DNA of 64,000 nt from Candidatus Omnitrophota bacterium (GCA_023247705.1 JAHFFY010000004.1:2561-66560); one strand, 5' to 3'; shown: positions 1-60,559, numbered from the stretch's first letter. Translations and numbers: made by a program. Notes: generated from the letters alone by a model not told the origin.

Positions 1-53
1 GGTTCGGTCAATGGGCGGAAAAAGAGAAAGAACAATTCGGCTTACAGGACATT

Positions 54-3000
54 TTGCAAGGGATCACACGATTGGTGGTCACGCCCCAAGAAAGGAAGGT
101 CCTCGAGAAAGAGACCGGAGAGTTGCTCGGGGGCGATTTCGCCCTGGCCAGAAAGAATAAAGCGGTCGTCAAGTTAAGCAAAGTGGTCGGGTTGTCGGTC
201 TCGGTGGGTGTCGGTGGCGTTTGGTTATATCTGGCGAATGAGCGATCTCATTTAGCGCAACAGATCCCTTCCTCTGTGCAAAAGCCGATCACCTCATCCG
301 AAACTCCGCAGGAGAATTCCGCTCCACAAACCGAAGCGGCAAAAGAGACCGCTCTAGAAGAAAGTCAAAAATTAACCGGGTTGATGTCTTTGGTGGAAGG
401 ATCGAAGGTCAGCGATGAAGTCAATCGCGCAAATAAAGAGAGAGCGATTCAGAATGTCCAAGCGGAGATTGAGCGTTTGAAGAAATCGGCTCAAGAGGTC
501 GAACAAAAGACCACAACCGTCACCGCCGATGTCCAGCAGTCCCGTCAGCGAATAGAATCTGATTTTAATTCCAAAATAGAAGAATTAAGAGATTTAGCGG
601 GAAAACACGAGGGAGTAAGCCCGCATCATGTCGTCCCAACCGAGGAGAAATGGTATAAATTGAAGGCAACCAAAGAGGTGAAACTGGCATCTCAAGAGAA
701 GAAAGGTCAGGATGAATCAAAAGTGGAATTGAAAGGCGATGGCGGTCTGCGTACGGTTCCGACTGGTCATGGAGGCAGCGATTATTCCGGCCTCGGCACG
801 GAATGGGAGGCGAATTTTGAGAGTGCCTCGCCATTTTTGTCTTTAGGGAGTTTTACCCAGGTGAATTATACCAATGGGTATCTTGTCCCGCGTAAAAGCC
901 AACCGCAGGTGTGGTCCTTAAAGAAACAGGAAGTGACGCGGGAATGGGTAATCCAATCCTCCAAAGGAAAAAGCCAGCTGCAGCTCGCGGTCCCGCCGGG
1001 TTATGTGATTGTCGGTCTTGAAACCAAAGAGCTGGTGGAAGGAACCATTTATTATGACCCGGTCCATCAAACCTGGCATCTGGCCTCGGAACAAAATTCC
1101 AAACAAGTCAAGGTTTACGTCCGTAAAGCTAAACCGAGAGAATTGCCGGTCTATAAACAATCCCTTCTTTTAGTAAATGATCAAGGGCAGGCTTTAAGTG
1201 CGGCAGCGATTCAGACCGCTTTTCAAAAGGATTTCCCGAAGGAGATGCTGGACCTTTTCGATTTGGCCAAAAGTTTATCGCTGGAAGAGAAGCTGGAATT
1301 GCGTCGGATGCTTCTCGATCTCAAAATTTTTTATTATACCACCAATCCCTATTTGACCGATGTTACGAAGGGGATGACCCTGGTGCAAGAGATGTTTTTT
1401 ACCCTGGCGCATCAATGCAATGGTTTTGCTTCCTTTAACAGCATTCTCTCGTTTGCTTTGGGTATTCTCGAGAAAGAGTATGCCATGGATGGGTACTGGG
1501 ATACAAACGGGAGCAGATTTGTGACCAGAGGAAATGGACATAATTGGAACATGTCTCAGGGCAACGTATTGAATCAGCCGCAGATCGGCGAATCGTCTCC
1601 TTTTTATCAAAAGGTCGGCGTCACGGAGGCGGAATGGACCAGGGAAATAACCGAGGTGATTCTCCCCCGGGCCCAAAGACTGCGCGCACTTCTTCCCAAG
1701 ATGCTTGAGATGATCACATTGAGACGCGAGCAGAAAAAGATTGAAACGGCGATCCAGGCCGAAGAGGAAAAACTAAAAAAGGTGAGCGAAGAAAAGCCGG
1801 CCAGACAAGACGGTGAAATCAGCCCGTACTATAAAGACAATCAAGAGTACTATTTTAAGTTAGTCGCCGGTTATCAGGAAAAAATAACCCAGCTTAAGAG
1901 GGATACCTTAACCAAGGAGACGATGGCAACGTTGATTGATTGGGGCTCTGAATTCAGCCGGTCATTGGTGCGGGGAGCGGTGGCGCCCCAGGGCAAGGGA
2001 GGCAAAGGGGTAGAGACACTTCTTCCTTCTGGACAATTAAAAAATATCTTGAAAGGTCAGCCCAAGGATCAGTCGAAGTCCGGCGCTTTGTTTGTTTTTT
2101 ACAATCCCTATGAACTCATGGCCGCGACGGATTATGCCCTCGAGATGCTTTCGGAATTGAATAATAAATTGTGGCGATTTCCTGCCCCAGACTATCCCAT
2201 GATGGAGCGGATCGCGCAAGTTAAAAAAGACATCTTCACGGCGGTGAAGGCGTTTGCCCGTCAGAATAATTGGGAATTGTATGAGCCCTTGGTCATGGAT
2301 CCGATCCGCTTACAGGATGGGACGCTCACGGATTTGGCGGATGGTGGAAATGCCGCCACCCCAAGCTATCTCATTGACCGGCTCAATAAAGATGACAATA
2401 TAACGGATGGAAATGATCTGATGACTTTTGATCTTCGGGACACGTTGGTGGATTTTCAAAAGGATTTGTTTTTATTTAAGTACGAACAAGACGAACAGTA
2501 TAGCGGAGGCGTAAGAACCCGCGCAGCGGAAACGGGATATCATTTAAAGGGAAAAAGATCCGGCCAGTATAAAGACCGACGGATTCCGGCCTTAAATTTG
2601 TCGCTGTATAATTATCCGTTTCCGAATGAAGAATGGCTGGCGGTTGGAACTGATCCGAATGGTAAAACGTTTTTTTTGGGGCCGGTCGCTGAGCGGGAAC
2701 GGCTGAACGATTTGCCGACCGAGGTCCGCAAGGATTTATTTCTTTTACCTAAAAATATTTTTGTGCTCAATGGAGAATTATTGGTCTGGTACAGGGATTC
2801 TCAGGGGCAGTATCGTCTCGGGGGAAGTTATTCCGAACATCATCACTTAGCCGACCGCATTTTTTTTACGACCACCACCCTGAGACAGTTACCCAATGGA
2901 ACGGTCATGTTTTTTGGTTATGAAAATTCCCGCTGGAAGTTGTTTATTTTGGATAAAACTGCGGTCGAAGAAGTTGATTTGGATTCTGTGACGCAGGAAA

Positions 3001-6000
3001 GAGTCGCTAGTGTGCAGGAGTTTGCTGTTTATTCCGATGGGCGCTGGGCCACGGTGCTGACGTATCAATCGGGATTACAAGGATATTTTGGGACAAAAGT
3101 TAAGCAGGCCGGGCTTTTTGATCCGGCCGAACGTTATAAGATCGCACGTATTCCAGTTGAGACCCCACAGAAAGGAATCATCGCTGCAGTGGAAGACCAA
3201 GGTGGATCATACTATATCGAATTTGACAGCGATGTTATTGAGCAAATTTCCGAGATTAAAAACGATCAACATCTTTTGGGGGCAGAGAATCCCATCTTTT
3301 TCCCTAACGGAAGTCCGGCTTTTTTAATCCAGCGGCGCGATAGAAAGTGGGTATGGGTGAGTGATCGGGCCGGTGCATCAACGGTCTTAATGCGATATCC
3401 CCTGAACAGAGTATTGGGAACCGCCTCTGGGGCTTCCTTGGAAATTTCAAATCAGCATAAGACCAAAGACGGTCGCTGGGTTGCTGAGGTGGCTTTATCT
3501 AAACAACCTGGCGTGAGGGATCTAGATATTCCTATCCCGGGTGTAAGGGGAAGCTTCGTGATTTTACCTAACGGCGAATGGTTTATGCGTATGCCTTTTA
3601 AAAAGGTCGAGACGGCGATTCAAATGGGCCCTGCCGGTTCATCGACAACGACCGTTGAGAAGAATTATGTCCGGCTTTGGGGGTCATGGTATGAGAGTCA
3701 ACGATCTCACATTCTGGCCACAGACGAGATTTTTACGAACGTTTTTGATCCCATTTTCGCGGTTGGTCCCGATGGAAAGGCGGATGCGTCCCGTTACCTG
3801 TTACTCTATTCCAACGATGAGAACGGTGTGATTTGGAAGGTCAAAGGCCCGCTGGCGCCTTATGTGGGATTATCTGAACAGGAGAGTTATCAACTTGATG
3901 CAATACCTATTCAGGAGACAGCGGATGGACAGATTGTTTTAAATTTGGTTAAAATGGCTCCAGATGGAAATATATTATATAATTTTTCTCCTGTCGTGAA
4001 TCTTTTTCCCCGGAGCCATCATTTTCTGAATCGGGTTATCGCTTTATATAATATTCCGGTTTCAGCCGTTGATGCCAATGAACACATCCCAGAGGAACGG
4101 ATCGATCTGCGCTGGGAACATTTTTCCCGGCTGGTCCCGGCGATCGATGCGACATTGAATTCCCCTAACACCCTGGGGGCGGGAAATTACACGGAAACGT
4201 GGAGTTATCTGGGCGACCTTTTGATGGATATGGAAAACGATCCCAACGGGCGGTATTTTGATCCACAACGCGTCGCGGAAATCCTTCGTTCCTATAAAAA
4301 GATTGTGGCCCAGCTGCTGTTTCATTATTCGGATTCTTCAGCTCAAGACATCGTCAGCTTTAATGAGTTGAAGAGATATACCGATGTCTTGATTGATCAC
4401 GGACTGCATGAGGTGGTCGTTGAGATCTTGGAAGAACTCTACAAAATTCTTTTGAACAAAGAGGCAGAAAAGCCCGCGTCGATGACTTCGGCCAAAGACA
4501 TTGTTTCCCTCCTGACGCCGCAGCAATGGCGGAATGGTATTGAGGCCTATGAAAAATTTCTTCAGGAACAGTTCAAATTAGATAGACGGACCAAAAGCAT
4601 CTATCTGCATAAATATCATTTTGAACCCAGCGATCACCACCGGGTGGATGAATTAAATGCCTTTGCCTCGATTTTCCTGGATGATGCAGCAGTGAACAAA
4701 TTGAGCGGTTATGGGCAGAGGATTGATTCTCTGACGCAGTGGATTCAGGATCTCAATATTCCTTTCCAATATTCTTCGGTCAAGGCCGCCCCGGGATTGA
4801 AAGATATTTTTATCCTTTTACATCAAGGTTTAAAAGGGGATCGACGGAATTTTGATGTGGAGTTCACCCAAGAAACACGATCGAGCCTTTTGTATAAAAT
4901 GGTCAAACTCATCCGCGGCAATACCGATCGACTGAAAGTCAATCTTGCCCATCCGTTGGCGAGTACCGAAGAATATCTCCAGGAACGCCGGGACTGGGAT
5001 TGGGTCAATCAACGCATGACCCGGATGTTGGGGGATGATTTCAACGGCCCTCACAATATCGGGGATGTGGTCACGACATTGATTGAAGAAGCGCATCACG
5101 ATGCTGCGACGTTGTTTGTCTTGGCGGCTTTTTTAACTTTTGTCTCAAGTTTTTTTTCTGATTTCCTGCGCAGAAGAAATATCACCCTGAGCCAAAACCC
5201 CAAGAAAGTGGTGGAACAATTTATCGCAGAAAATCCCTGGCTGGAAGGCTGGGGCGAAGTCGAGGGGATCAAGGATTTTCTTTTAGAGATCTTGAAGTCG
5301 GGAAAACTGATGACCCCCGAACAAGAAGAAAGATTACGCTCGATCCGCCAGCAGACTTCTTCGAATGAAGATCGCATGATCATCGACGCGATTCTGGCAT
5401 TGCCATTTGAATATCCCGCGAAGTCCTCGATGAGTTTGACCGCGATGGGGTTGATTGTCGATCATCTCAATGGGGATACCACTATTGAGCCGTATCGAGA
5501 CCGTAAAAAAATGACCCAGGCCATTTTGGATTTGGTTGAAAATATTAAGGCCGGAAAAATTCCCATCAAAGATTTTTATCCCGAACTGCGCAAGATCATT
5601 TCCCGGTTTAGCCGTGAAGAGACATCTCTCCAGGAAGATCTGACCCCGGTCGCCTTTCAGGATTTGCAGTCCGGATTACAAAATAAAAAGAAAGACGCGC
5701 GTAAGGTCATGACCGACGGCAAAGAAATCATTTCATCCGAGTATGACGGCTATGTCTCAAAACAGACCGGAGCGGGAGTGGAATTTGCTGGGGTCAGGGA
5801 ATACCGGGCCGGAGACGATTGGCGGCGGATTACTTTCGCCAGCTTGGCCTCCATGGATGGCCCTCTCCAGGTGAAGGAATCCCAAAAGGAGACGAAAGTC
5901 TCGGCAGGGATCCTTCTCGATCTGCGCGCGCTCAATAACGCTGACAACCTGGAGCAGTGGACCGAGCAGCTAGCCAACTCGTTGAAAGTTTTATATAAAA

Positions 6001-6818
6001 AATTCAGGGATGGGCTTTCCAGCGGCGGTGATTTTCAACTGAAAGGGTTGATTGTGATTCTGCCGGATGGAAATTTAAAAGAAATAAAAATCGACCGGAC
6101 GTTTCAATATCTTGAACTGGCCAATGGGATTTTTAAGATTGTCGAAAATAATTTTCCGGTGGCGTTTCAGATGTTTCGGATGCAGATGAAGGCTAAGCAG
6201 CCGGAGTTTTATACTGCGGCGGAAAAAAAGCGCTACGCCCAGAGGACCAAAGGCCTTTGGAAAGGGGAATTGAGCCAGCAAAAATTGGGACAGATGCAAC
6301 AGCGCCTTAAGGCTGATAATATTTATTTTGTTGGGGTCGATGAATCCGAACATCAATCGTTGGTTCAAAGTTTTCCGCGGTCGCGTAGTTTTTATTGGAA
6401 AGGCCAGCGGGCATATTCGATTTTGCCCAAAGACCAGGACAAAACGTTGGAGGTGTTGGAATTGGAGCCCGGGGAGAGCGTGACGGCTGCGGCGGACCGG
6501 GCGCTGTTGAAACAATCTGACATCGAACATCCTGAATCTTCAGGGCAAGACCAGATTGCTGATAAAGCCTTGTTGACTGCTGTTAAACCGCCCCCCGGTG
6601 GTATCGATCTTAACCCGGACAACCTGGATCTGCAGACGCAAGGGGAAGGAATGAATTTGAACTTTCCTTTGGATCCCAAAAACCTCGAAGGGGTCCAGAT
6701 CAACGGTCTTACGCCGGTTATTTTAGAGATCACGCCCGTTTCCAACCTGCCTTTTCTTTTAGGGTTGGGTCTCTTGAAGACTGAGCAATTGAGTCTAACT
6801 TCAGAACGTCATAACTAA
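54..6818 (+). CDS. Giant protein of unknown function, at least 2254 aa, membrane-anchored. The reading frame is open to the 5' edge of the window, so the true start may lie upstream.
   Basis: Uninterrupted 6.7-kb ORF; the first start codon in frame is TTG at 54 and there is no in-frame stop upstream within the window. Hydrophobic segment VVGLSVSVGVGGVWLYLA near residue 45. E/K/Q-rich coiled-coil stretch around residues 90-200. Second hydrophobic segment ATLFVLAAFLTFVSSFF at nt 5104-5160. C-terminal region GAGVEFAGVREYRAGDDWRRI (nt 5766-5830) resembles the DUF58 signature. C-x-x-F-A-S motif AHQCNGFASF at nt 1407-1436. GC content matches the surrounding genes. Confidence 0.75.
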   Translation: MQGITRLVVTPQERKVLEKETGELLGGDFALARKNKAVVKLSKVVGLSVSVGVGGVWLYLANERSHLAQQIPSSVQKPITSSETPQENSAPQTEAAKETALEESQKLTGLMSLVEGSKVSDEVNRANKERAIQNVQAEIERLKKSAQEVEQKTTTVTADVQQSRQRIESDFNSKIEELRDLAGKHEGVSPHHVVPTEEKWYKLKATKEVKLASQEKKGQDESKVELKGDGGLRTVPTGHGGSDYSGLGTEWEANFESASPFLSLGSFTQVNYTNGYLVPRKSQPQVWSLKKQEVTREWVIQSSKGKSQLQLAVPPGYVIVGLETKELVEGTIYYDPVHQTWHLASEQNSKQVKVYVRKAKPRELPVYKQSLLLVNDQGQALSAAAIQTAFQKDFPKEMLDLFDLAKSLSLEEKLELRRMLLDLKIFYYTTNPYLTDVTKGMTLVQEMFFTLAHQCNGFASFNSILSFALGILEKEYAMDGYWDTNGSRFVTRGNGHNWNMSQGNVLNQPQIGESSPFYQKVGVTEAEWTREITEVILPRAQRLRALLPKMLEMITLRREQKKIETAIQAEEEKLKKVSEEKPARQDGEISPYYKDNQEYYFKLVAGYQEKITQLKRDTLTKETMATLIDWGSEFSRSLVRGAVAPQGKGGKGVETLLPSGQLKNILKGQPKDQSKSGALFVFYNPYELMAATDYALEMLSELNNKLWRFPAPDYPMMERIAQVKKDIFTAVKAFARQNNWELYEPLVMDPIRLQDGTLTDLADGGNAATPSYLIDRLNKDDNITDGNDLMTFDLRDTLVDFQKDLFLFKYEQDEQYSGGVRTRAAETGYHLKGKRSGQYKDRRIPALNLSLYNYPFPNEEWLAVGTDPNGKTFFLGPVAERERLNDLPTEVRKDLFLLPKNIFVLNGELLVWYRDSQGQYRLGGSYSEHHHLADRIFFTTTTLRQLPNGTVMFFGYENSRWKLFILDKTAVEEVDLDSVTQERVASVQEFAVYSDGRWATVLTYQSGLQGYFGTKVKQAGLFDPAERYKIARIPVETPQKGIIAAVEDQGGSYYIEFDSDVIEQISEIKNDQHLLGAENPIFFPNGSPAFLIQRRDRKWVWVSDRAGASTVLMRYPLNRVLGTASGASLEISNQHKTKDGRWVAEVALSKQPGVRDLDIPIPGVRGSFVILPNGEWFMRMPFKKVETAIQMGPAGSSTTTVEKNYVRLWGSWYESQRSHILATDEIFTNVFDPIFAVGPDGKADASRYLLLYSNDENGVIWKVKGPLAPYVGLSEQESYQLDAIPIQETADGQIVLNLVKMAPDGNILYNFSPVVNLFPRSHHFLNRVIALYNIPVSAVDANEHIPEERIDLRWEHFSRLVPAIDATLNSPNTLGAGNYTETWSYLGDLLMDMENDPNGRYFDPQRVAEILRSYKKIVAQLLFHYSDSSAQDIVSFNELKRYTDVLIDHGLHEVVVEILEELYKILLNKEAEKPASMTSAKDIVSLLTPQQWRNGIEAYEKFLQEQFKLDRRTKSIYLHKYHFEPSDHHRVDELNAFASIFLDDAAVNKLSGYGQRIDSLTQWIQDLNIPFQYSSVKAAPGLKDIFILLHQGLKGDRRNFDVEFTQETRSSLLYKMVKLIRGNTDRLKVNLAHPLASTEEYLQERRDWDWVNQRMTRMLGDDFNGPHNIGDVVTTLIEEAHHDAATLFVLAAFLTFVSSFFSDFLRRRNITLSQNPKKVVEQFIAENPWLEGWGEVEGIKDFLLEILKSGKLMTPEQEERLRSIRQQTSSNEDRMIIDAILALPFEYPAKSSMSLTAMGLIVDHLNGDTTIEPYRDRKKMTQAILDLVENIKAGKIPIKDFYPELRKIISRFSREETSLQEDLTPVAFQDLQSGLQNKKKDARKVMTDGKEIISSEYDGYVSKQTGAGVEFAGVREYRAGDDWRRITFASLASMDGPLQVKESQKETKVSAGILLDLRALNNADNLEQWTEQLANSLKVLYKKFRDGLSSGGDFQLKGLIVILPDGNLKEIKIDRTFQYLELANGIFKIVENNFPVAFQMFRMQMKAKQPEFYTAAEKKRYAQRTKGLWKGELSQQKLGQMQQRLKADNIYFVGVDESEHQSLVQSFPRSRSFYWKGQRAYSILPKDQDKTLEVLELEPGESVTAAADRALLKQSDIEHPESSGQDQIADKALLTAVKPPPGGIDLNPDNLDLQTQGEGMNLNFPLDPKNLEGVQINGLTPVILEITPVSNLPFLLGLGLLKTEQLSLTSERHN

Positions 6819-6917: not shown

Positions 6918-8096
6918 ATGAGCAAAGAATATTCTCCCTTTACGCCAGGGGTGCCTGTTCCCATAGATTTTTTTGTTGGAAGGAATCAAGAGTTAACAAC
7001 ACTGGTTGATAAAGCAAAAGCATCTTCGTCGGGTAAATTACAGTTGGCTTTTGTTTATGGCGAACGAGGCATTGGAAAAAGTTCTTTATGTCGTATGACA
7101 CGTGTTATTGCGGAAAGTCAAGCGGATATCTTGGGGGTACATGTTTTTCTGGGAGGGGTCGTATCTCTCCCAGAAATGGCGAGACGGATTTTTGAAAAAT
7201 TTCTTAATGAAAGTATTAATAGACCATGGTATGAACAGATTAGATCGTTTTTAGGAAAACATGTCAGGGAAGTGGGGTTATTTGGAGTTAATATTGAATT
7301 CGATGCTGACAAAAAGGAACTGAATCAGTTGGTTAATGGTTTCTCAACAGCGTTGAGGACGTTAGTTCAGCAACTAAAGGATAAAAAAGGGCTATTGATT
7401 ATTCTCGATGATTCAAATGGGCTGGCTAATTTGAAAGATTTTGCGAATTGGCTTAAAAGTCTGATTGATGAGATTTCGACATCCGATCAGCCGCTCCCTT
7501 TGTTCCTGGTCTTAGCTGGATTACCAGAAAGAAGATTGCAGCTTTTTCAATCTCAACCTTCTCTGATGAGGGTGTTTGATCCAATTGAGATTAAAAAATT
7601 ATCAGAAGAAGAGACAAAAAATTTCTACAGGCAATCATTTTCTAAGGTAGGAATCAGCATTAAAGAAGAGGAATTAGCGACCCTATGGCAATACTCAGGA
7701 GGCTATCCAGTTTTAGCCCATGAGATTGGAGACGCTGTTTTTAAGATAGACATGGATAATAATATTGATAAAGATGATGCTGTTAGAGGTATTGTTAAGG
7801 CGGCTCATGTTATTGGACAGAAGTATATAGAACCTCAAGTGTATGACGCGATCAGAAGTCAGAAATACCATTCCATTTTAAGAAAATTGGCGAGAGATCC
7901 TTTTGAAAGTCAATTTCGAAAAAAAGAAATAGCCAAAGATCTTAATGAAAGCGAAAAAAAAGTTTTTGATAATTTTCTTCAACGTATGAAGAAATTAGGG
8001 ATCTTAAAAGAAGATAAGGAAGCAGGATCAGGAGCTTATCAATTTACAAGCGATTTGCATTATTTGTTTATTTGGCTTCAAGCTCAGGGGAATTGA
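6918..8096 (+). CDS. AAA+ / STAND-type NTPase (Arch_ATPase / AAA_16-like) with a C-terminal winged-helix-like region.
   Basis: Walker A YGERGIGKSS. Walker B hhhhDD as LLIILDD. GGYP motif typical of the Arch_ATPase family. Roughly 36-38% GC, clearly lower than its neighbours. Confidence 0.7.
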   Translation: MSKEYSPFTPGVPVPIDFFVGRNQELTTLVDKAKASSSGKLQLAFVYGERGIGKSSLCRMTRVIAESQADILGVHVFLGGVVSLPEMARRIFEKFLNESINRPWYEQIRSFLGKHVREVGLFGVNIEFDADKKELNQLVNGFSTALRTLVQQLKDKKGLLIILDDSNGLANLKDFANWLKSLIDEISTSDQPLPLFLVLAGLPERRLQLFQSQPSLMRVFDPIEIKKLSEEETKNFYRQSFSKVGISIKEEELATLWQYSGGYPVLAHEIGDAVFKIDMDNNIDKDDAVRGIVKAAHVIGQKYIEPQVYDAIRSQKYHSILRKLARDPFESQFRKKEIAKDLNESEKKVFDNFLQRMKKLGILKEDKEAGSGAYQFTSDLHYLFIWLQAQGN

Positions 8097-10912: not shown

Positions 10913-11899
10913 ATGAAAATAAATGACCGTTTAAAAGAAATTTTATCCCTTGCGCTACGTTTTGGTTTAAGCGGGCTTCTGTTGGCGTATCTCTTCAGCA
11001 AAATTGATACTCACTCCATGATGGCGACGTTGAAGACGGCTGATTTTAAGTACATCTATCTTGCCGCCGGGATGTTTCTGCTGATTCATGTGGTTCTGTT
11101 GCTGCGATGGCTTTTATTTATCCGGGCGCTGTCTTTGGAAATTCCGGTCAAAACGCTGGTCGAGTATTTTTTTATCGGTTTGTTTTTTAATCTTTTTCTG
11201 CCGAGCTCAACCGGAGGAGATTTGGTTAAAGTTTTGGGACTTTGCCGATACACGGACCAAAAAGCGAAAGTGGTCGCCTCGGTTGTTTTGGACCGGGTGT
11301 GCGGATTTGTCGCGATTGTTATCGTTGCCTTTTGTTCCTATGGATTCGGTTATGGTTTATTGCATGATCATACGATCTTGATCGGAATTTTCGTCCTGGC
11401 CTTGATGTGTGTGATTTTATTGACGATTTTTTTTAATGAAAAATTTTTTTCGTTTGGATCACATTTGTTTGCGCGGTTTCCGAAAATCAAAGACAGCTTG
11501 ATGAGCCTGCATTATAATATCTCTTTGGTCAAAGGGCGTATTCCGTTTGTCTTTCTGGCGTTTTTATTGTCCTGTCTTTCGCAGTCTTTGCTGATCATTG
11601 ATTTCTTTTTTGTCAGCATGGCGTTGCACCAGAGCATTTCGTTGATTTATTTTTTCATCTTTGTCCCGATCATCTGCGTTGTTTCTTCGTTGCCTTCCAT
11701 CGGGGGGTTGGGTGTCAGAGACGCGGGAGCTGCCCATTTGTTTGCTAAAATCGGTGTGGCCGAAGGGGTCTCGGTCAGTTTGACACTGGTCAATTTTATT
11801 TTTATGGTTATCATCGGCCTTATCGGCGGAATTGTTTATGTCGCTCACTTATCTCCTCGACGGGTACAACATCATCAAGCTTGTTCCACTTCTGGCTGA
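10913..11899 (+). CDS. Flippase-like integral membrane protein (UPF0104 / LPG-synthase transmembrane-domain family).
   Basis: Multi-pass membrane protein. The N-terminus LKEILSLALRFGLSGLLLAYLFSKID is typical of the flippase-like domain. Confidence 0.6.
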   Translation: MKINDRLKEILSLALRFGLSGLLLAYLFSKIDTHSMMATLKTADFKYIYLAAGMFLLIHVVLLLRWLLFIRALSLEIPVKTLVEYFFIGLFFNLFLPSSTGGDLVKVLGLCRYTDQKAKVVASVVLDRVCGFVAIVIVAFCSYGFGYGLLHDHTILIGIFVLALMCVILLTIFFNEKFFSFGSHLFARFPKIKDSLMSLHYNISLVKGRIPFVFLAFLLSCLSQSLLIIDFFFVSMALHQSISLIYFFIFVPIICVVSSLPSIGGLGVRDAGAAHLFAKIGVAEGVSVSLTLVNFIFMVIIGLIGGIVYVAHLSPRRVQHHQACSTSG

Positions 11900-12356
11900 G
11901 AAGCCGTGGGACGAATCTAGGGCGTTTTTTATCCGCTGGATAGAGGCCGCTTTGCCGCAAGGGAGCCGGAACAATCAGGTGATTGTGGTCTTTGACGGTC
12001 AGCCGGGGAGCTGGGGGGATTGTTCGACATCGGTTGTCCAAGTTGTGTTTTCACTGGATGAAAGCGCCGATGATCGGATCAAAGCAATGGTCAACCGCTC
12101 GAAGTCGAAAAAAACGATCGTGGTCGTGACCAATGATCGTGATATTATTTATGCGGTCCGTGCCGCCGGGGCCTCCAGCATGAGCGTGGAAGATTTCATG
12201 CGCAAAGGCCGACAACACCCCTTGGGCGCAAAAACGTTGCCTAAAAAAATGGCGCAGCAGAAACAGGATCAATCAAAGTACATCTCAAAATCATTGGAAT
12301 TTAAAATCACCTCAGAGTTCGAACGCATTTGGTTAAAATCCAAGGACTCGAAGTAA
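11832..12356 (+). CDS. NYN-domain protein (YacP/Rae1-like predicted RNase).
   Basis: YLLDGYNII N-terminal motif and VVTNDRDI motif. The start may instead be the ATG at 11838. Confidence 0.6.
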   Translation: MFMSLTYLLDGYNIIKLVPLLAEKPWDESRAFFIRWIEAALPQGSRNNQVIVVFDGQPGSWGDCSTSVVQVVFSLDESADDRIKAMVNRSKSKKTIVVVTNDRDIIYAVRAAGASSMSVEDFMRKGRQHPLGAKTLPKKMAQQKQDQSKYISKSLEFKITSEFERIWLKSKDSK

Positions 12357-12371
12357 ACAGGAAATCTTTTT

Positions 12372-13154
12372 ATGATGAATATTCTCCGCTCAATCGGTCG
12401 TTACGTGATCGGAATTTTTTTGGGGTTGGGAAATGCCATTTTTTTTCTCCTGGAAATTTTAGGAAATATTGTTAAGGGGAAAATCCGTGTGCAGGAGGTT
12501 TTAAAACAGATTTTTGAGCAAGGAGTTCAATCTCTGGTCATCGTGGCACTGACTTCCTTTGCATCGGGAGCGGTGTTGGCGATGCAGGGTCATGTGATGC
12601 TGGAACGGTTCGGCGCCAAAGAATACGTCGCGCATCTGGTGGCGCTTTCATTAGTGCGTGAGTTGTCGCCGGTTTTCACTTCTTTTATTTTTTCCGGCAA
12701 GGCGGGGGCCAAGATTGCGGCGGAATTAGGCTCGATGAGCGTCAATAATCAAATCGTTGCGACACGCACGCTGGGGGTCGACCCGGTGGAGTTTCTGGTT
12801 GTGCCGCGTTTCGTCGCTTGTTTTCTGGTCCTGCCGCTTTTGGTCGTATTTTCGGAACTGCTGGGGATCATGGGAGGATATTGCGTGAGTGTCTTCGAGG
12901 CCGGCATCCCGGGATCGTTTTATGTGACACAGACGTTACGCGTCATTAATTATGTGGATTTTTTCAGCGGTTTGATCAAGACGTTTTTTTTCGCGTTTTT
13001 AATCGGCTGGATTTGCTGTTATCAGGGGTTCTTCACCCAGGGCGGATCGTTGGGGGTTGGAAAATACACGACCAAAGCCGTCGCGTATTCTTATATTTTT
13101 GTAGTTTTATCGAATGTTTTTTTAACCAAGGTCATCCTGGCCTTGTGGCAATAA
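12372..13154 (+). CDS. mlaE: ABC transporter permease MlaE.
   Basis: About 260 aa multi-pass permease with MlaE/Ttg2B-like sequence (GVQSLVIVALTSFASGAVLAMQG). Confidence 0.85.
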   Translation: MMNILRSIGRYVIGIFLGLGNAIFFLLEILGNIVKGKIRVQEVLKQIFEQGVQSLVIVALTSFASGAVLAMQGHVMLERFGAKEYVAHLVALSLVRELSPVFTSFIFSGKAGAKIAAELGSMSVNNQIVATRTLGVDPVEFLVVPRFVACFLVLPLLVVFSELLGIMGGYCVSVFEAGIPGSFYVTQTLRVINYVDFFSGLIKTFFFAFLIGWICCYQGFFTQGGSLGVGKYTTKAVAYSYIFVVLSNVFLTKVILALWQ

Positions 13155-13219
13155 ACAGGCGGGGTTGATCGGATAAAATTGTTTAAAATAGTTAGATAAA
13201 TTTTTGAGGAGGAAATCCC

Positions 13220-13564
13220 ATGAACATTTTTTACAAAAAATTTATGACCATCGTGATCGGGTGCAGTTTTTCTCTTTTGACAGGTTGCGTAAGCCATACT
13301 TCCAATGGCGGACAACTGACCATGTATCGCACGCCCAGCATGGAAGCGGCTTGGATCCGCAACGGAGATCCGATCCTGTTTGATGGAACACTATGGTACC
13401 CCACGGACAATGTCGAAAATATCCAGGATGCGGAAGTTTATCTCATGGGCGAGTATCAGGAGGTTCAATTTTTTATTGAAAAAACAGATGTTAAACCTTA
13501 TGATCGGTTATACACCAAGTTTGGAGAGAATCAATTCCGGTCTTTTGCGCATCGAGAGGAATAA
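13220..13564 (+). CDS. Lipoprotein of unknown function embedded in the mla operon.
   Basis: Signal peptide with lipobox LLTGC; 114 aa; no recognisable domain. Confidence 0.55.
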   Translation: MNIFYKKFMTIVIGCSFSLLTGCVSHTSNGGQLTMYRTPSMEAAWIRNGDPILFDGTLWYPTDNVENIQDAEVYLMGEYQEVQFFIEKTDVKPYDRLYTKFGENQFRSFAHREE

Positions 13565-14280
13565 TGATAGAGATTATTCATCTTTTTAAAAAACTTGAAG
13601 ACCAGATGGTGCTTACTGACGTTAATCTGAAAATCGCCCTAGGAGAGATTTTGGTCGTTCTCGGAGGAAGCGGGGCCGGAAAAAGCGTTCTACTGCAGCA
13701 TCTGATCGGTTTAATGAAGCCCGATCGAGGTTCCATCATGATTGATTCCAAAGATATCACCCGTCTTAAGGAGCGGGAACTTTTGCAGATGAGAAAAAAC
13801 ATCGGCTTTCTCTTTCAGGAAGGCGCTTTATATGACTTCATGAATGTCTTCGAGAACATTGCTTTTCCTCTGCAGGAACATACAACCATGAATGAATCGG
13901 GGATCAGAGCTAAAGTCAAAGAAGCCTTGAAAATTGTCGGGCTGGAAGGGGCCGATGAGAAATTTCCCTCTGAACTCAGCGGCGGGATGAAAAAAAGAGC
14001 GGCTCTGGCCCGGGCCATTATTCTGGATTCGAAAATTCTTTTCTGCGACGAACCGACTTCCGGGTTAGACCCGATTTTAAGCAAGGATATCACCGACCTG
14101 ATTCAGAATATATCAAGACAGTTAAAGTGCACGACCATCATTACCTCGCATGATATGAAAAATGCGTTAAGGATTGCTGATCGCGTGGCGATCGTTTTTA
14201 AGGGGGCGATCCTGGCAACGGGAACACAAAAAGATATCCTCTCATCTCAAAATGCTTACGTCCGGGAGTTTTTGAATTAG
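13564..14280 (+). CDS. mlaF: ABC transporter ATP-binding protein MlaF.
   Basis: Walker A GGSGAGKS, ABC signature LSGGMKKR and Walker B ILFCDEP. Confidence 0.85.
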   Translation: MIEIIHLFKKLEDQMVLTDVNLKIALGEILVVLGGSGAGKSVLLQHLIGLMKPDRGSIMIDSKDITRLKERELLQMRKNIGFLFQEGALYDFMNVFENIAFPLQEHTTMNESGIRAKVKEALKIVGLEGADEKFPSELSGGMKKRAALARAIILDSKILFCDEPTSGLDPILSKDITDLIQNISRQLKCTTIITSHDMKNALRIADRVAIVFKGAILATGTQKDILSSQNAYVREFLN

Positions 14281-14446
14281 CGTGAATTGATTGAATTTTT
14301 TTGGGTCAATGAAGAAATGGAGACATTTTACGCTTTAACTTTGAAAAGAAACATGATATATTCTGCTTCGCCAAAGCGATCGGAATTTTCAGTATTGCTC
14401 CGAAGCAATAGCGGTGCGCAACCAAGCGGTAGGCGAGAGAGGTTTT

Positions 14447-15040
14447 ATGGATAAAAAAGATTTCTACAAGAAACTATCAGCGGGAATATTTTTTTTCCTT
14501 TTTATTATGTTGACGGTGATGATGATCTTGGTGATCGGGATTGAGAAGGGATTCACCCAGCCCAAATTTTATGTTGCGGTTCTTTTTAATCGCGTGGATG
14601 GTCTGGCGATCGGCGCGCCGATCCGGTTTTCCGGGGTCAGCGTGGGCACGGTGGGCAAGATCGATTTCCTGGAGGAAAAGATCAATGGCCGTGGCGTCAA
14701 AGTGACATTAAATATTTTCAAGCGTTATAAGAAACAGCTGGAAAAGAGTACGCGCATTTCGATAAGAACTGAGGGGCTGTTAGGTGGGAAGCTGGTGGAT
14801 ATTTCCAGCAGCGAAGTGGGACCTTATGTGGATTTGGACTGGCCGATCATCGGAGAGGATCCGATCGATGTGCAGGATCTGGTCGTTGTGTTTAAAGAGG
14901 CTGCAAATAGTTTTACCCAAACAACGAAGACCATGGATTCGATCAACCGGGAAGTCCGCACGATTTCCGAATCGTCTCAGCGTTTGATTAAACGGGTGGA
15001 ACAAAAATTAATTGAAGGAAACCTATTTAAAGTTTTCTAA
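14447..15040 (+). CDS. mlaD: MCE-domain substrate-binding protein MlaD.
   Basis: N-terminal transmembrane helix followed by an MCE domain (FNRVDGLAIGAPIRFSGVSVGTVGKIDF). The ATG at 14447 has a GAGAGAGG ribosome-binding site; the ORF track starts at a GTG at 14414. Confidence 0.8.
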   Translation: MDKKDFYKKLSAGIFFFLFIMLTVMMILVIGIEKGFTQPKFYVAVLFNRVDGLAIGAPIRFSGVSVGTVGKIDFLEEKINGRGVKVTLNIFKRYKKQLEKSTRISIRTEGLLGGKLVDISSSEVGPYVDLDWPIIGEDPIDVQDLVVVFKEAANSFTQTTKTMDSINREVRTISESSQRLIKRVEQKLIEGNLFKVF

Positions 15041-15043
15041 GCC

Positions 15044-15415
15044 ATGTTTATATTAGGAAATTTTTTGATCGCATTATCTAATGTGATCAGTCTTATTTTA
15101 AATCTCTTATTCTGGATGATTTTCATCAGGGCCTTATTAAGTTGGGTGAATCCTGATCCGTATAATCCGATTGTTCATTTTTTATACCGGACCACCGAAC
15201 CGTTATTGGAGCCGATCCGCAGACATTTACCGGTGATGGGACTTGATTTTTCTCCGATGATTGTTATATTAGTGATTGTCTTTTTACAATCCTTTTTAGT
15301 GGTTAGCTTGAGAGACAAGGGGATGCGGTTAAGGTATTCTTCCTCTGTTGAATCCATGCCGATGTTCGACCGCCGGAGTTCCGACGGTTCAGATACGTTG
15401 TTTTACCGGAGATAA
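15044..15415 (+). CDS. yggT: YggT family membrane protein.
   Basis: IRALLSWVNPDPYNPIVHFLYRTTEPLLEPIRRHLP is typical of YggT/Ycf19. Confidence 0.8.
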   Translation: MFILGNFLIALSNVISLILNLLFWMIFIRALLSWVNPDPYNPIVHFLYRTTEPLLEPIRRHLPVMGLDFSPMIVILVIVFLQSFLVVSLRDKGMRLRYSSSVESMPMFDRRSSDGSDTLFYRR

Positions 15416-15444
15416 TTTTTATTTTTTAAGAAGGAGATTTTGCA

Positions 15445-15738
15445 ATGTTGGATAAAATGAAACAGCTCATGGAAATGAAAAAACAAGCTGACCAGCTCAA
15501 ACGGCAATTGGATGCCGAGAGCGTAGAAGTCAATGAAACCCGCGGGATCAAGATTGTCATTAACGGATCACAATATTTTCAATCGGTCGAAATCGATCCG
15601 ACGTTATTGCAGCCTGAGAACAAAGCGCGATTCGAAAGCGATTTATTGCGCAGTTTAAACACGTCGATTAAGAAATCTCAAAATATTGCCGCGCAAAAAA
15701 TGAAATCGATGGTGGGTTTGAATATTCCGGGACTATAA
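15445..15738 (+). CDS. ybaB: Nucleoid-associated protein YbaB/EbfC.
   Basis: 97 aa; MKQLMEMKKQADQLKRQL followed by a GIKIVINGSQ core. Confidence 0.85.
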   Translation: MLDKMKQLMEMKKQADQLKRQLDAESVEVNETRGIKIVINGSQYFQSVEIDPTLLQPENKARFESDLLRSLNTSIKKSQNIAAQKMKSMVGLNIPGL

Positions 15739-15794
15739 GTGATCGGGTTTGCGGGTTAGCGCGTTGCGGGTTCTTAATCCGTCAACCCGATCAC
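15739..15794 (+). terminator. Hairpin immediately after the ybaB stop codon (11-bp stem). It may be a terminator or a regulatory structure.
   Basis: GTGATCGGGTT at 15739-15749 pairs with AACCCGATCAC at 15784-15794. The loop contains the direct repeat TTGCGGGTT twice. Confidence 0.35.
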
Positions 15795-15842
15795 CAGATC
15801 TATTTAATGAACGTATAACCTGCAAAATGAGGAGGTCTTCAA

Positions 15843-16076
15843 ATGCCTTATGATAAGTCTTTAGATGTCGAATCTTTCAAAGAAGTCAAAGAATTTAATG
15901 AGTCCAGGATCACGGTCGGGGTTTTTTCTTATAACGGCGGCGAGAAAAAACTGCAAATCTCCCGTGAAAATAAAGATCAGAACGAAGAATGGCGATTCGC
16001 GAAATTAGGACGGATGAATAAAGCAGAGGTCAAAGAGGTCGTTCCCGCGATCATGCGTGCGGTCGATAAGATGTAA
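15843..16076 (+). CDS. Small protein, possibly a PC4-like ssDNA-binding transcriptional coactivator homolog.
   Basis: 77 aa; KLQISRENKDQNEEWRFAKLGRMNKAE resembles the bacterial PC4/YdbC-like fold. GAGGAGG ribosome-binding site. Confidence 0.45.
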   Translation: MPYDKSLDVESFKEVKEFNESRITVGVFSYNGGEKKLQISRENKDQNEEWRFAKLGRMNKAEVKEVVPAIMRAVDKM

Positions 16077-16151
16077 GCAGTAGGCTCGGGTTGATTTTTC
16101 AAGATTAATTGTTTATTGGAGAAATATTTTTTAGATGATTAGGAGAGAAGT

Positions 16152-16628
16152 ATGGTAGAGGTTTATTTAACCAGGGCCGGTTTTGAAAAACTCAGAGATG
16201 AATTGGAGAAGCTGAAAACCGTTGAGCGCAGAAAGATCGCCAAGGCCATCGGCGAAGCCCGTTTGCTAGGTGATATCTCGGAAAACGCAGAGTACGACGC
16301 GGCCAAAGACGCCCAAGCGCATTGCGAGGCGCGCATTGCTGAATTAGAAGCAAAGTTGGCGCAGGTCCGTATTATTGAAAACGAAAATATCCCAGCGGAT
16401 AAAGTTTATATCGGCGCGATTGTTAGTTTGCTCGATATGGAAACCGACGAAGAGATCAAATATATGCTGGTCTCTCCGGAGGAATCGAATTATGAGGAGA
16501 ATAAAATTTCGATTTCTTCTCCGATCGGGAAAGGGTTATTGGGGCATAAAGCCGGAGAAACCATTGATATTAATGTTCCGGCCGGCATTCTAAAATATAA
16601 AATTCAGAAAGTCGAACGACCGAAATAA
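16152..16628 (+). CDS. greA: Transcription elongation factor GreA.
   Basis: LTRAGFEKLRDELEKL followed by ISENAEYDAAKDAQA; 158 aa. Confidence 0.9.
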   Translation: MVEVYLTRAGFEKLRDELEKLKTVERRKIAKAIGEARLLGDISENAEYDAAKDAQAHCEARIAELEAKLAQVRIIENENIPADKVYIGAIVSLLDMETDEEIKYMLVSPEESNYEENKISISSPIGKGLLGHKAGETIDINVPAGILKYKIQKVERPK

Positions 16629-16664
16629 ATTTATTTTAGTTGAGAGGACGAAAAATTCATGGAC

Positions 16665-16703
16665 GGGCGCCTCTCTGTCACCCAAGGCGAAGGAGAGGCG
16701 CCC
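16665..16703. terminator. Bidirectional hairpin terminator between the convergent greA and minus-strand GT-C genes.
   Basis: GGGCGCCTCTC at 16665-16675 pairs with GAGAGGCGCCC at 16693-16703, an 11-bp GC-rich stem. Confidence 0.5.
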
Positions 16704-16712
16704 ATCGTCATT

Positions 16713-18080
16713 TCACTCCCGCCTTCCCGGCCAACGATCCAACAATCCAATCGTATCAAATATCCAAAACACAAAACTTGGTATAACCGCAAATAGAATC
16801 CGGCTCAACGAAACCTTCAGCCACCAGGTGATCTCAAAATACGTGTTGATATAGTAATAGAATCCAACGATGAGAAGATAAAGCCCTAAGCAAATGGGAA
16901 CGATCCGGATCGATTTGTGAAAACAGCGGTTCATGCTTAACAGCATGCCGATGGCGAGCGTAATCCATAATCCGTTCCATTTCGTGCTTTTCAACTCGAC
17001 CAGGAAAAAGGCAAGGATCATTTGCAACCGCGCGGGATTCGATGGTTTTTGTGAAGAAACCAGACCGTTAATAAATGTTTGATTCGCCGGGGCGAAGTAG
17101 AGTTGAAATAAAAAAACGGGAAGAAGCCCGACCCCTAAGCCCGCCAGTAAAAAACCGATCAATGATTGTTTGTTGATTGATTGACCTTTGTTCCAGAGAA
17201 AAAATAAACTTGAAAAAACAATCAGGCCCACAGCGATCAACCCTTCGGGTTTGGTAAAACCCAAAAATCCCAGCGAAATGCCTGCTACCGCCGCAAATTG
17301 TTTTGAATCATCCCGGATCGCCATCACCAGGCACGCTAAAGCGCACAAAAGATAAAACGCCAGAACGATATCGCAATATTGACTGCTGGCGAGTTTGGTA
17401 AAGTACGGCAGGGTGAACAATAATAAAACAGCTGCGGTGGATAAGAGGACCGAGACAGATCTGCGCAAGACTGAGAATAAAAATCCTCCGGTGAGGAACG
17501 TAAATAAGAGTGAGTTCCATAGCGGAACAATCGGAGTCGGGTTTTTATATCCGATCCATCCCCAGACGTTCATCAACGGTAATAAAAGCGGATAATGCGG
17601 ACTCGACCGCCATAAAACTGGATCAAACATGGCGCGCCACTGGGTTTTTCCTAAAAAAAGAAATCTCGCCTTTAAATTCCAAACCGACCACGCGTCCCAT
17701 CCGCCCATCGGATAAAAGAACGCTTGATAAATGGTCGGGATCAAGGCGAATCCAATCATCAGAAGGGCCAGGTTGTTTTGAGGCGATTCGATCATCCCCT
17801 TCCGGGAGACTTCGGGCGAATTTTTTTTATTCATCGAGTTTCGAATCAAGATGAGACATATCAGAAGAACGAGATGCGCGAGATTGATCGCTGGTTTGCT
17901 GAGCTCGTTGAACACAGCGAAACAATAAAACAGCAGGTGACTGCTGATGCCGATCCCTAAACCCAAACCGAGAAACAAATGAACATAAAAATCAGGTCGT
18001 TTGTTTCGTGGGAACAAAACATCGATGATGAGGAATCCGATCGTCCAGGATATAAAAATTGGAAATAAATAAAGTATCAA
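16713..18080 (-). CDS. Multi-pass membrane protein, likely a GT-C fold glycosyltransferase (ArnT/PMT-like).
   Basis: 455 aa with at least 10 hydrophobic helices. TTG start. It lies beside a GT2 gene. Confidence 0.5.
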   Translation of the reverse strand: MILYLFPIFISWTIGFLIIDVLFPRNKRPDFYVHLFLGLGLGIGISSHLLFYCFAVFNELSKPAINLAHLVLLICLILIRNSMNKKNSPEVSRKGMIESPQNNLALLMIGFALIPTIYQAFFYPMGGWDAWSVWNLKARFLFLGKTQWRAMFDPVLWRSSPHYPLLLPLMNVWGWIGYKNPTPIVPLWNSLLFTFLTGGFLFSVLRRSVSVLLSTAAVLLLFTLPYFTKLASSQYCDIVLAFYLLCALACLVMAIRDDSKQFAAVAGISLGFLGFTKPEGLIAVGLIVFSSLFFLWNKGQSINKQSLIGFLLAGLGVGLLPVFLFQLYFAPANQTFINGLVSSQKPSNPARLQMILAFFLVELKSTKWNGLWITLAIGMLLSMNRCFHKSIRIVPICLGLYLLIVGFYYYINTYFEITWWLKVSLSRILFAVIPSFVFWIFDTIGLLDRWPGRRE

Positions 18081-18097
18081 TAGACTTTTCTTTTGTC

Positions 18098-18577
18098 TTA
18101 AGGTTTGGTTCTTCTGGCCAAAATAATGCCAAAATTATTTCTTTTTAACGGAATGGCTTGGATCTCCCGGATTTTTTTCCAGGCCGTCTCTGCGTTGGAA
18201 CAATCGAACAGAATCAGATCATGGTCCAAGTTATTCCAATCTAAAATCGTCGGTGCTAAGATATATTGCGCTTGGGCAAACTGGGCGGCATGCTGTTCGT
18301 CATCCAGATCTTTGTCCGTGTAGTAGCCAATCGATGGAATATCTTTAAAGATACTTTCTAAACCGGAAAATTTATAACCCGGGAAAAAGAACGGGATTTG
18401 TTTTCTTTTTTGCTGAGTCTGCCGGATATCCTGAACGGATTTGATCGTGTTGATTAAAATGATGACAACCGCGATGAAAAGAAAAGCGTTACTGCGTAAT
18501 CGTGCGAGGTCCAGGTGCGATTGTCGTGGGACATCATTGGTTTTTTTCTTCCGCTTATGATGTGAGGGCGTGGTCAT
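18098..18577 (-). CDS. Membrane-anchored hypothetical protein.
   Basis: 159 aa; basic N-terminus followed by one transmembrane helix; forms an operon with the GT-C-like gene. Confidence 0.45.
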   Translation of the reverse strand: MTTPSHHKRKKKTNDVPRQSHLDLARLRSNAFLFIAVVIILINTIKSVQDIRQTQQKRKQIPFFFPGYKFSGLESIFKDIPSIGYYTDKDLDDEQHAAQFAQAQYILAPTILDWNNLDHDLILFDCSNAETAWKKIREIQAIPLKRNNFGIILARRTKP

Positions 18578-26712: not shown

Positions 26713-27735
26713 ATGATGATGAAAAAAATCGTAATGGTTGTCTCAATCTTCTTTATATTCATTGGATTATGTTTTTATATTGTTTTCTATTCAACCTTTT
26801 TTCCAGGGATTTGTTTGTCCCAATGGTTGCAAAGAAAATATCCGGAGATACACCTGGAAAGTTTTCAGTATAAGAAGCGCTCGTTTGAATTTTTAAATCA
26901 AATCGAGTTTTCCGACGTTCATGTCGTTTTGAAGAAAGATAATTTACATTTTAAAATTGATTTTGCCGGTTTGAAATTGATTGGCCATAAAAGTTTTTGG
27001 CATCCGGAGAATATTTTTGATCTCTCCGTCTTGGAATTGGATATCAAAAGTTCTGTGTTTGAGATGACCCGCGGCCGTCTCAAATTGAAATTTGCTTTAT
27101 CAAAAAATCATAGCATGAATTTGCAAGGCGATTTGAACGTGGGGAACGGATCGTTAGGCCCCTATGCGCTTGAGGACATATCCGCGGGGATCAGCGGGGA
27201 TGAAAGACATCTCCGGCTGGATCAATTTGCGGCCGTCTGCTTTAAAGGAAAATTAGCAGGAGACATTTTGTTGCGACTTTCTTCTGTGGTATCATATGAA
27301 TTGAAATTAACCTTCTCTGAGATGAGAACCGAAGACTTGCGCTCTTTAAATGATCAAATTTTTTCGCAGCTGAATGGAAATCTCAACGGGACTATCCAAA
27401 TTGAAGGGACCGACGATCAAATCGAGACGCTGGTATCTGATCTTAATGTCCAGCAAGGCGGCAAGATCCGGTCATCTTTGTTCGGCTTGCTGGTCGATTA
27501 TCTGCCGGAAGGTTCACAAAAGGCAGTATTATCCGATTTGATCCAATCGGATCAGAACGTTTTGGTGAAGAAAGCTGTATTGCAGATTAAAAATCTCGGG
27601 GTAAAGAAATTCCCGACCCGCATGATCTTGGAAAGTGATAAAGTGAATTTAGACCTCAGTCTGGACATCAATCTGGATGCGCCGATCAATCAATGGATTC
27701 AAAAGATGAATGAACTGAAAAAGGAGAATTTATGA
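26713..27735 (+). CDS. N-terminally anchored hypothetical protein, possibly a short YdbH/AsmA-like protein.
   Basis: 340 aa with an N-terminal transmembrane helix. Its position upstream of YnbE-like and YdbL-like genes mirrors the E. coli ydbH-ynbE-ydbL arrangement. Confidence 0.5.
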   Translation: MMMKKIVMVVSIFFIFIGLCFYIVFYSTFFPGICLSQWLQRKYPEIHLESFQYKKRSFEFLNQIEFSDVHVVLKKDNLHFKIDFAGLKLIGHKSFWHPENIFDLSVLELDIKSSVFEMTRGRLKLKFALSKNHSMNLQGDLNVGNGSLGPYALEDISAGISGDERHLRLDQFAAVCFKGKLAGDILLRLSSVVSYELKLTFSEMRTEDLRSLNDQIFSQLNGNLNGTIQIEGTDDQIETLVSDLNVQQGGKIRSSLFGLLVDYLPEGSQKAVLSDLIQSDQNVLVKKAVLQIKNLGVKKFPTRMILESDKVNLDLSLDINLDAPINQWIQKMNELKKENL

Positions 27736-52650: not shown

Positions 52651-52681
52651 ATGGGCGTCATAAAAAATAAGCGAGGTTTCC

Positions 52682-53983: not shown

Positions 53984-54041
53984 CCAATGAACCGAATCGG
54001 CAAATTTAAAAATGTAGACAAAAATTTGGAAAGGAAATGGT

Positions 54042-54989: not shown

Positions 54990-55011
54990 TTGCCAGAGTT
55001 CTTAATAAAAT

Positions 55012-56844: not shown

Positions 56845-57242
56845 TGGATCAGGAACGAAAAAAACTTTTGGTGTTTGGATACGGGCTGTGCGTGATCTTG
56901 AGCATGATCAGCATCCGTTTAGGATTTAAACACGGTTTTCACCTCTCCAATTTTGTCCTCTTGGGTGTCGCCGGTTGTATTTTATTTTTGACGCTCTTTC
57001 AATTAAAATATCTGGCGGTCATTTATAAACACTGGATGAAGGTCGCGCATGTGATTGGATCAATTGTGACTGCGGTCATTTTGACGTTGACATTTTTTTG
57101 TTTGTTCGGGTCAATTGGCCTGATTTTGCGGCTCTTGAAGAAAGATCTGCTTAATCAAAAAATCGATCCGCAGGCCCAAACGTACTGGCATCTGCGGGAA
57201 ACACGCGTTTTTGACAAGACAAATTATTCCAGACAATTTTAG
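56845..57242 (+). CDS. SxtJ-like small membrane protein (carbamoyltransferase-associated).
   Basis: Three or four transmembrane helices. The ATG lies immediately after the carbamoyltransferase stop, a conserved synteny. Confidence 0.6.
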
Positions 57243-57297
57243 ACTGAGTTTTACTGGTATAACAATCGAGTCGTTTATTGAAGGAGGAGAGAACCCC

Positions 57298-60546: not shown

Positions 60547-60559
60547 CACAAAAGGGTTT

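Follow-up and report, generated by a model that had tools for sequence, protein, structure and literature searches.

The 64,000-nucleotide (nt) stretch of Candidatus Omnitrophota DNA analysed here (GCA_023247705.1 JAHFFY010000004.1:2561-66560; referred to as the window) begins inside a giant gene, whose product combines in a single polypeptide what other bacteria encode in adjacent genes, namely a TgpA-like transglutaminase (TG) domain and a DUF58 module, and which is a rare, undescribed variant. Because both lie in one protein, two of the three components of the MoxR-DUF58-transglutaminase triad are fused. We are highly confident of the two domain identities, and consider it probable, if with considerable room for doubt, that the gene represents a single-chain, membrane-spanning version of the TgpA and DUF58 components of this triad. 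The triad occurs very commonly in both bacteria and archaea and includes the essential tgpA of Pseudomonas aeruginosa; its function and membrane topology are unsettled. A natural TG-DUF58 fusion with a membrane helix in between is independent evidence that both act together across the membrane, and offers a single polypeptide for testing their cooperation.

Counted from nt 3, frame 3 of the plus strand runs for 2,271 codons without a stop until it reaches the TAA at 6816-6818. The first-pass annotation, made from the sequence alone, had described a real, uninterrupted open reading frame (ORF) at 54..6818 (+), with 2,254 amino acids (aa) counted from a TTG, and had suspected that the gene was larger than the window; both claims hold. 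The public protein P0001 (2,950 aa), the sole match among 5.8 billion proteins in a word-indexed search, is 100% identical over the part lying in the window and has 679 further residues upstream, which places the real start ~2,037 nt before the window and makes the TTG at 54 an internal codon. Window residue n is therefore full-length residue n+679. P0001 is known from a single contig of a metagenome-assembled genome (MAG).

Scanned exhaustively with HMMER (query: window aa 230-1429), a set of 1.84 billion representatives yielded only 24 relatives, in line with the earlier description of the gene as rare and experimentally uncharacterised. Most of them are 1,500-7,700 aa long and co-linear with the giant. 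The BLASTP alignment with P0123 (2,963 aa; found on 9 contigs from several samples) spans giant residues 1-2950, end to end, at 26% identity, and P0122, P0125 and P0132 are likewise co-linear. Others, among them P0126, P0127, P0129 and P0131, are without the N-terminal head and keep the same core order of helical region, first transmembrane helix (TM1), coiled coil, Cys-His domain, beta repeats, helical region, second transmembrane helix (TM2) and DUF58-like module. One of these head-less members is named 'DUF58 domain-containing protein [Candidatus Omnitrophota bacterium]' by NCBI. Alignments were made of the TG domain of 14 relatives (A1), the C-terminal module (A2) and the head (A3). Neither the whole protein nor any of the profiles A1, A2 and A3 matched a PDB entry by sequence, and Pfam and NCBIfam searches with six tiles plus the N-terminal 723 aa yielded noise only, except for DUF58 at E 0.03. 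A genome-contig search with P0001 found no relative, the source genome itself not being among the species representatives searched, and a word-indexed search with the A1 profile returned no match and missed known members too, apparently owing to a limit of the word index.

A TgpA-like domain and a DUF58 module in one chain

By its predicted fold, the Cys-His domain is a clear structural relative of the periplasmic transglutaminase domain of TgpA. An AlphaFold2 model built from A1 (predicted local distance difference test, pLDDT, 88.3; predicted template modelling score, pTM, 0.85) had TgpA (6g49) as its sole significant Foldseek match among 350,542 chains (E 5.8e-5, probability 1.00). The sequence-only link to known families is weak, and it was fold comparison alone that revealed the likeness to TgpA. 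Within A1, the predicted catalytic Cys, a His 41 residues further on and a few structural residues are invariant; among relatives covering the respective columns, the Cys is kept in 21/21 and the His in 18/18. The column of the third triad residue, ~11 residues past the His, holds D, E or N in the family. One Cys in 2,950 aa compares with 1.27% Cys in 48 neighbouring ORFs (~37 expected; P about 2e-15), and P0123 has exactly one Cys too, at the same position.

TgpA (PA2873, PDB 6g4h/6g49; COG1305-type) is an essential inner-membrane protein of P. aeruginosa whose periplasmic domain acts as a transglutaminase in vitro and whose gene is co-transcribed with PA2875 and PA2874 (PMC3507681). The giant has in common with it the Cys and His catalytic residues, membrane helices flanking the TG domain and, by the charge rule applied below, a periplasmic location of that domain (PMC3507681). 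On the other hand, sequence identity amounts to only 13%, under PF01841 detection, and the third triad position is Asn rather than the Asp of TgpA. Unlike in TgpA, moreover, the TG domain of the giant sits in a 2,950-aa chain with a coiled coil, a repeat array and a fused DUF58, and the gene is not surrounded by a MoxR/DUF58 operon.

Judged from its sequence, the C-terminal module is DUF58, which gives substance to the distinct region that had been noted past the second helix. PF01882 matches 7/8 aligned family members (best E 5.2e-13); precomputed matches exist for P0123, P0127 and P0129, with a weak one for P0126. Of the signature EF..R.Y.pGDD.R.IDW, the giant reads EFAGVREYRAGDDWRRITF, and the Y, D and R are invariant in A2. 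The well-conserved blocks past TM2 begin with 'G.G.EF...REY.PGDD.R.ID...VK', followed by 'FY..EN.RY' and 'VG'. The motif 'EF..hR.Y.pGDD.R.ID' and the downstream blocks are common to DUF58 proteins such as PA2874, the bifidobacterial PFNA duf58 and the mycobacterial moxR1 neighbour. In the classic arrangement, a DUF58 gene has a MoxR AAA+ ATPase gene on one side and a transglutaminase gene on the other (PMC6803598, citing Wong and Houry 2012). In such operons DUF58 is a separate gene, whereas in the giant it is fused to the transglutaminase in reversed order (TG, then DUF58), with no MoxR adjacent. It follows a TM helix with a positive flank and is probably cytoplasmic. At the metal-binding DxSxS position of von Willebrand factor A (vWA) domains the giant reads D-L-R, which makes metal binding doubtful.

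Taken together, a TgpA-like domain by structure, a C-terminal DUF58 and a relative already named after the latter by NCBI leave little of the initial view that the protein has no globally recognisable identity. As this case shows, exhaustive profile search combined with structure prediction can resolve giant ORFs of this kind in candidate phyla.

Membrane topology, proposed function and opposing evidence

Hydropathy detects single helices only, TM1 and TM2 (Table 1). An N-terminal transmembrane anchor had been claimed: the hydrophobic helix is indeed present at window aa 55-78, yet it lies ~735 residues into the protein and not at its N-terminus. A second helix expected near residue 1690 was found at window aa 1704-1722 (Kyte-Doolittle, KD, 1.97). 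In every family member, the flank N-terminal of TM1 and the one C-terminal of TM2 are positive; by the positive-inside rule, the TG domain and the repeats would therefore be periplasmic and DUF58 cytoplasmic. On charge distribution, this topology agrees with that published for TgpA and with a cytoplasmic ATPase partner. The TG domain and DUF58 should lie on opposite membrane faces, given that a TM helix separates the modules; in either orientation, the head and tail share one side.

How might such a protein work? The enzyme domain, periplasmic by charge distribution as reported for TgpA, would use thiol-based acyl transfer to cross-link, deamidate or cleave proteins of the envelope or surface, with the repeat array as its putative substrate- or partner-binding platform. 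Across the membrane, the vWA-type DUF58 module may link this chemistry to a partner in the cytoplasm, which by analogy would be a MoxR-type AAA+ ATPase encoded at another locus, and the head and tail could serve as localisation or assembly modules. Zhang and Aravind (2012, PMC3495828) predicted that the YebA-like MoxR-vWA-TGL (transglutaminase-like) triad processes proteins close to the membrane. The giant resembles this system in that its transglutaminase-like domain, linked to the membrane, is joined by a vWA-class (DUF58) module, and it is plausibly such a machine as well. The known system comprises three genes, whereas the giant has two components in one chain and the ATPase unlinked. Besides, the same study places the TGL domain in a cytoplasmic loop (PMC3495828); in the giant, where a TM helix separates TGL from DUF58, both could be cytoplasmic only if a crossing had been missed.

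Several observations weigh against a TgpA-DUF58 fusion of this kind. As to the domains, PF01841 (Transglut_core) leaves the giant unmatched and only 3/14 relatives reach E 0.003-1 (best E 0.0026); the third triad residue of the giant, Asn, was set by alignment and not by geometry; and the giant scores 14.7 bits (E 0.018) against PF01882, below the gathering cut-off of 23.4 bits. Hydropathy gives a single TM helix on each side of the TG domain, as opposed to the polytopic N-terminal membrane domain of TgpA. No MoxR gene adjoins the giant, stands beside seven of its relatives or occurs among the 31 window ORFs scanned. With regard to topology, the N-terminus resembles a Sec-type signal with a conserved 'YA|Q' site and predicts an exported head. 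With an exported head and only two TM helices, the TG domain would therefore be cytoplasmic, and so the charge-based and the signal-peptide-based orientations are in conflict. A further crossing could exist in some relatives: the conserved segment ~100 aa past TM2 (P0127 aa ~4329-4347, P0122 ~2746-2764, P0137 ~1819-1837, giant window aa ~1806-1822) is moderately hydrophobic in P0127, P0122 and P0137, and short and polar in the giant. Lastly, both the enzyme activity and its substrate are putative.

Head, tail and alternative explanations

The N-terminus of the protein, outside the window, consists of a signal-peptide-like segment and a conserved ~340-aa domain, which has >1,510 matches at 50-70% identity (E down to 1e-163), nearly all named ones from Omnitrophota. 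Its alignment A3 holds 53 invariant columns, and no Pfam, NCBIfam or PDB sequence match was found for it; nor was a relative by structure detected. The bodies behind the head vary (NUDIX, HAD, methyltransferase, PGI, HEAT). The tail, i.e. the last ~75 residues with the pattern GGID[LFMV] ... PVI.NI.P..NLP.LLGL, recurs in 16/~145 fetched proteins, including P0122, P0123, P0125, P0132, P0079 and P0020, and looks like a sorting or assembly signal. Going by these sequence matches, the head and tail are Omnitrophota modules common to >1,500 other proteins. They expose a large unannotated Omnitrophota family in which cytoplasmic-type enzyme domains stand behind a signal peptide, and which bears on surface construction, or access to other cells, in these ultra-small and possibly predatory bacteria.

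A further reading, which we put forward as tentative and on the doubtful side, is that the head and tail form an Omnitrophota-specific sorting or display system and, separately, that the fusion serves as a 'Rosetta stone' for one transmembrane unit made up of TgpA-type transglutaminases and DUF58 proteins. If true, the sorting system would resemble PEP-CTERM/exosortase or the C-terminal domain of the type IX secretion system (T9SS) in role and would handle >1,500 proteins, cytoplasmic-type enzymes included, with the giant as its largest kind of client. An enzyme outside and DUF58 inside would then settle the disputed topology and logic of the MoxR-DUF58-transglutaminase triad.

The same modules could also traffic variable cargo in a different sense, the giant being a delivered effector akin to polymorphic toxins whose TG/papain-fold domain hits prey or host proteins of predatory or parasitic Omnitrophota. 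Deamidase toxins with a papain/transglutaminase fold exist, the >1,500 head-bearing proteins differ in body as listed above, the head family is strongly Cys-poor (0.15%), as exported proteins often are, and the N-terminus resembles a Sec signal peptide. Previous work has linked Omnitrophota giants, which bear enzyme domains of a similar cytoplasmic type, to predation (bioRxiv 10.1101/2023.11.21.568195). We nevertheless judge this unlikely: architectures that stay co-linear over all 2,900 aa at 26% identity in different genomes behave like orthologues and not like swapped cassettes, the same core is found in head-less members, the enzyme region is flanked by two conserved TM helices, the best structural match is TgpA, a housekeeping envelope enzyme and no toxin, and no small immunity-like gene is conserved downstream in the relatives' loci.

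The published giants of the phylum ('Archaeovorins', 'Dockerin-type'; bioRxiv 10.1101/2023.11.21.568195; 10.64898/2026.06.07.730766) resemble the present protein in being very long, in combining a signal peptide with TM helices and in their long stretches without recognisable domains, and the head family shares enzyme-domain kinds with them (NUDIX, HAD, HEAT). However, our protein is ten-fold or more shorter, and the hallmark domains of those giants (C39/S8 peptidase, dockerin, discoidin, SecA-like) were not found in its Pfam/NCBIfam tiles. Neither of the two preprints mentions transglutaminase or DUF58.

Quite improbable, in our view, is a non-catalytic scaffold in which the TgpA-like domain is a peptide-binding pseudo-enzyme and the protein, with its coiled coil, propeller and vWA-type modules, organises the envelope or cell surface. 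Inactive peptide-binding transglutaminase-like domains are documented (PMC3495828), the third triad position of the giant is Asn and not Asp, and coiled coil, helical repeat or beta repeat make up much of the protein. Against this, Cys and His are invariant in about 20 very divergent relatives, and two proteins of 26% identity have kept no Cys but the catalytic one, which is difficult to account for unless this residue has a chemical role. Besides, papain-type triads may legitimately have Asn as their third residue.

That the protein is a large surface adhesin or repeat protein of the ordinary kind, an outcome that had been named as one that would overturn the initial interest in the gene, is very improbable. 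Large size, a signal-peptide-like N-terminus, a beta-rich repeat segment and little cysteine would suit it, but no adhesin, Ig-like, cadherin, RTX or similar family appeared in any tile (Pfam, NCBIfam), self-BLAST showed no internal repeats in the giant, and the protein combines a DUF58 module with two internal TM helices and an enzyme-type domain whose triad is conserved. Finally, although the source is a MAG and the protein sits on a single contig, an assembly or annotation artefact (chimeric contig or fused pseudogene) is hardly conceivable given 2,950 codons without a stop, uniform composition and the many contigs of P0123; co-linear homologues of the same length in independent genomes rule out both a chance ORF and an assembly chimera.

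Remaining features and genomic neighbourhood

The features of the gene part lying in the window are compiled in Table 1. The E/K/Q-rich stretch of the first-pass annotation is borne out by 33% E+K+Q at window aa 101-200. The ~1400 aa of beta-rich sequence without motifs were overstated, the beta-rich part being about a third of that size: the span comprises the TgpA-like domain (aa 271-566), a helical linker, ~500 aa of repeats enriched in beta-formers (aa ~820-1330) and a helical region. Within the family, sequence conservation is lowest, and gaps are most frequent, between the TG domain and TM2. The relatives have obvious ~40-45-aa repeats ('DGxWLAV...G...IGPLA') in this segment, and a hidden Markov model (HMM) made from these found two clear units in the giant (full aa 1552-1582, E 3e-8; 1682-1710, E 6e-4) plus two weak ones. 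PD40 occurs in the arrays of 3/5 relatives (best E 4.4e-4, 20.6 bits vs a cut-off of 20.9); such PD40/WD40 hints are confined to relatives, the array region of the giant being unmatched in Pfam. From these repeat patterns, the array is likely a beta-propeller.

Table 1. Features of the giant gene within the window (positions in nt of the window; full aa, residue numbers of P0001)
Feature	Position	Strand	Basis or remark
Gene part in window: C-terminal 2,271 codons and stop of P0001	3..6818	+	frame and P0001 match
End of helical region (full aa ~440-733), K/R-rich flank at end	3..164	+	conserved in family, including head-less members
TM1, internal hydrophobic helix (full aa ~734-757)	165..236	+	N-flank positive in every member
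E/K/Q-rich segment, probably coiled coil or linker	300..707	+	poorly conserved sequence
TgpA-like domain: N-terminal beta-sandwich and transglutaminase/papain-like core	813..1700	+	full aa 950-1245
Codon of C1151, predicted catalytic nucleophile	1416..1418	+	only Cys in 2,950 aa
Codon of H1192, predicted catalytic base	1539..1541	+	invariant in family
Codon of N1203, inferred third triad residue	1572..1574	+	D/E/N column in family; placed by alignment
Helical or coiled-coil linker past TG domain, including conserved 'NNWELxEP'	1701..2462	+	
Variable beta-rich array of degenerate ~40-45-aa 'DGxW[LV]A...G..x[IF]GP[LV]A' repeats, probably propeller-like	2463..3995	+	repeat HMM
Helical region before TM2, no known family	3996..5111	+	low-level conservation
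TM2 (full aa 2383-2401), then RRR	5112..5168	+	C-flank positive in all members
Juxtamembrane region, TM2 to DUF58, no known family	5169..5687	+	conserved
DUF58-type module (EFAGVREYRAGDDWRRI ... FY..E..RY ... VG)	5688..6440	+	PF01882 matches, motif
C-terminal tail 'GGIDLN ... PVILEITPVSNLPFLLGL'	6576..6815	+	common to other giants and small head-family proteins

The DnaK encoded in the window is 85-86% identical to DnaK of Candidatus Omnitrophota MAGs, and the host is therefore an Omnitrophota bacterium. As had been noted initially, the GC content of the giant gene is like that of the host: composition is uniform along the gene, the ORF has a GC of 0.474 vs 0.445 for the rest, and its GC at third codon positions (GC3) is 0.52 vs 0.51-0.57 in eight other window genes. 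The giant is a native chromosomal gene, since its GC3 is like that of its neighbours and a YacP-Mla-GreA block is common to the window and to the locus of a relative.

This block, YacP-MlaE-(small ORF)-ABC-MlaD-...-GreA plus two reverse-strand genes, occupies window positions 11832-18577 (its YacP-MlaE-ABC-MlaD-GreA part at 11.8-16.6 kb) and recurs in the P0125 locus (L005 1-5898). There it directly precedes the giant gene, and in the window the giant lies 5 kb away on the other side of the block, which points to vertical inheritance with local rearrangement. No conserved partner gene was found, the loci of seven relatives holding unrelated housekeeping, toxin-antitoxin and signalling genes.

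Directly downstream of the giant, an ATPase gene at 6918-8096 (+) is AAA_16/ATPase_2/nSTAND1-like and not MoxR; with a GC3 of 0.31 vs 0.51-0.57 in other genes, it was probably inserted or acquired recently. As a functional partner it was rejected on account of this foreign GC3 and because the neighbour is not conserved. A different, unrelated orphan ATPase (AAA_14 + DUF4143) lies directly upstream of the giant gene encoding P0123. In the P0122 genome (L004 2-5272), another long ORF of >1,756 aa, cut by the contig end, lies directly upstream and overlaps the giant start by 4 nt, which points to an operon made up of two very large genes. A MamI (magnetosome) family gene (L009 34411-34602) ~5 kb from the gene of the 7,718-aa relative P0127 hints at a magnetotactic lineage.

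As for the rest of the 64-kb window, nearly all long ORFs are on the plus strand and the GC skew is steadily positive. No Rfam family reached its gathering score anywhere in it, and two ORFs, 26713-27735 (+, 340 aa) and 18098-18577 (-, 159 aa), had no Pfam match at E <= 1e-5. At 43475-45690, two genes for GGDEF diguanylate cyclases lie side by side, one of them with GAF, and a cluster of four NAD-dependent epimerase/dehydratase genes at 51688-61629 suggests a surface-polysaccharide locus.

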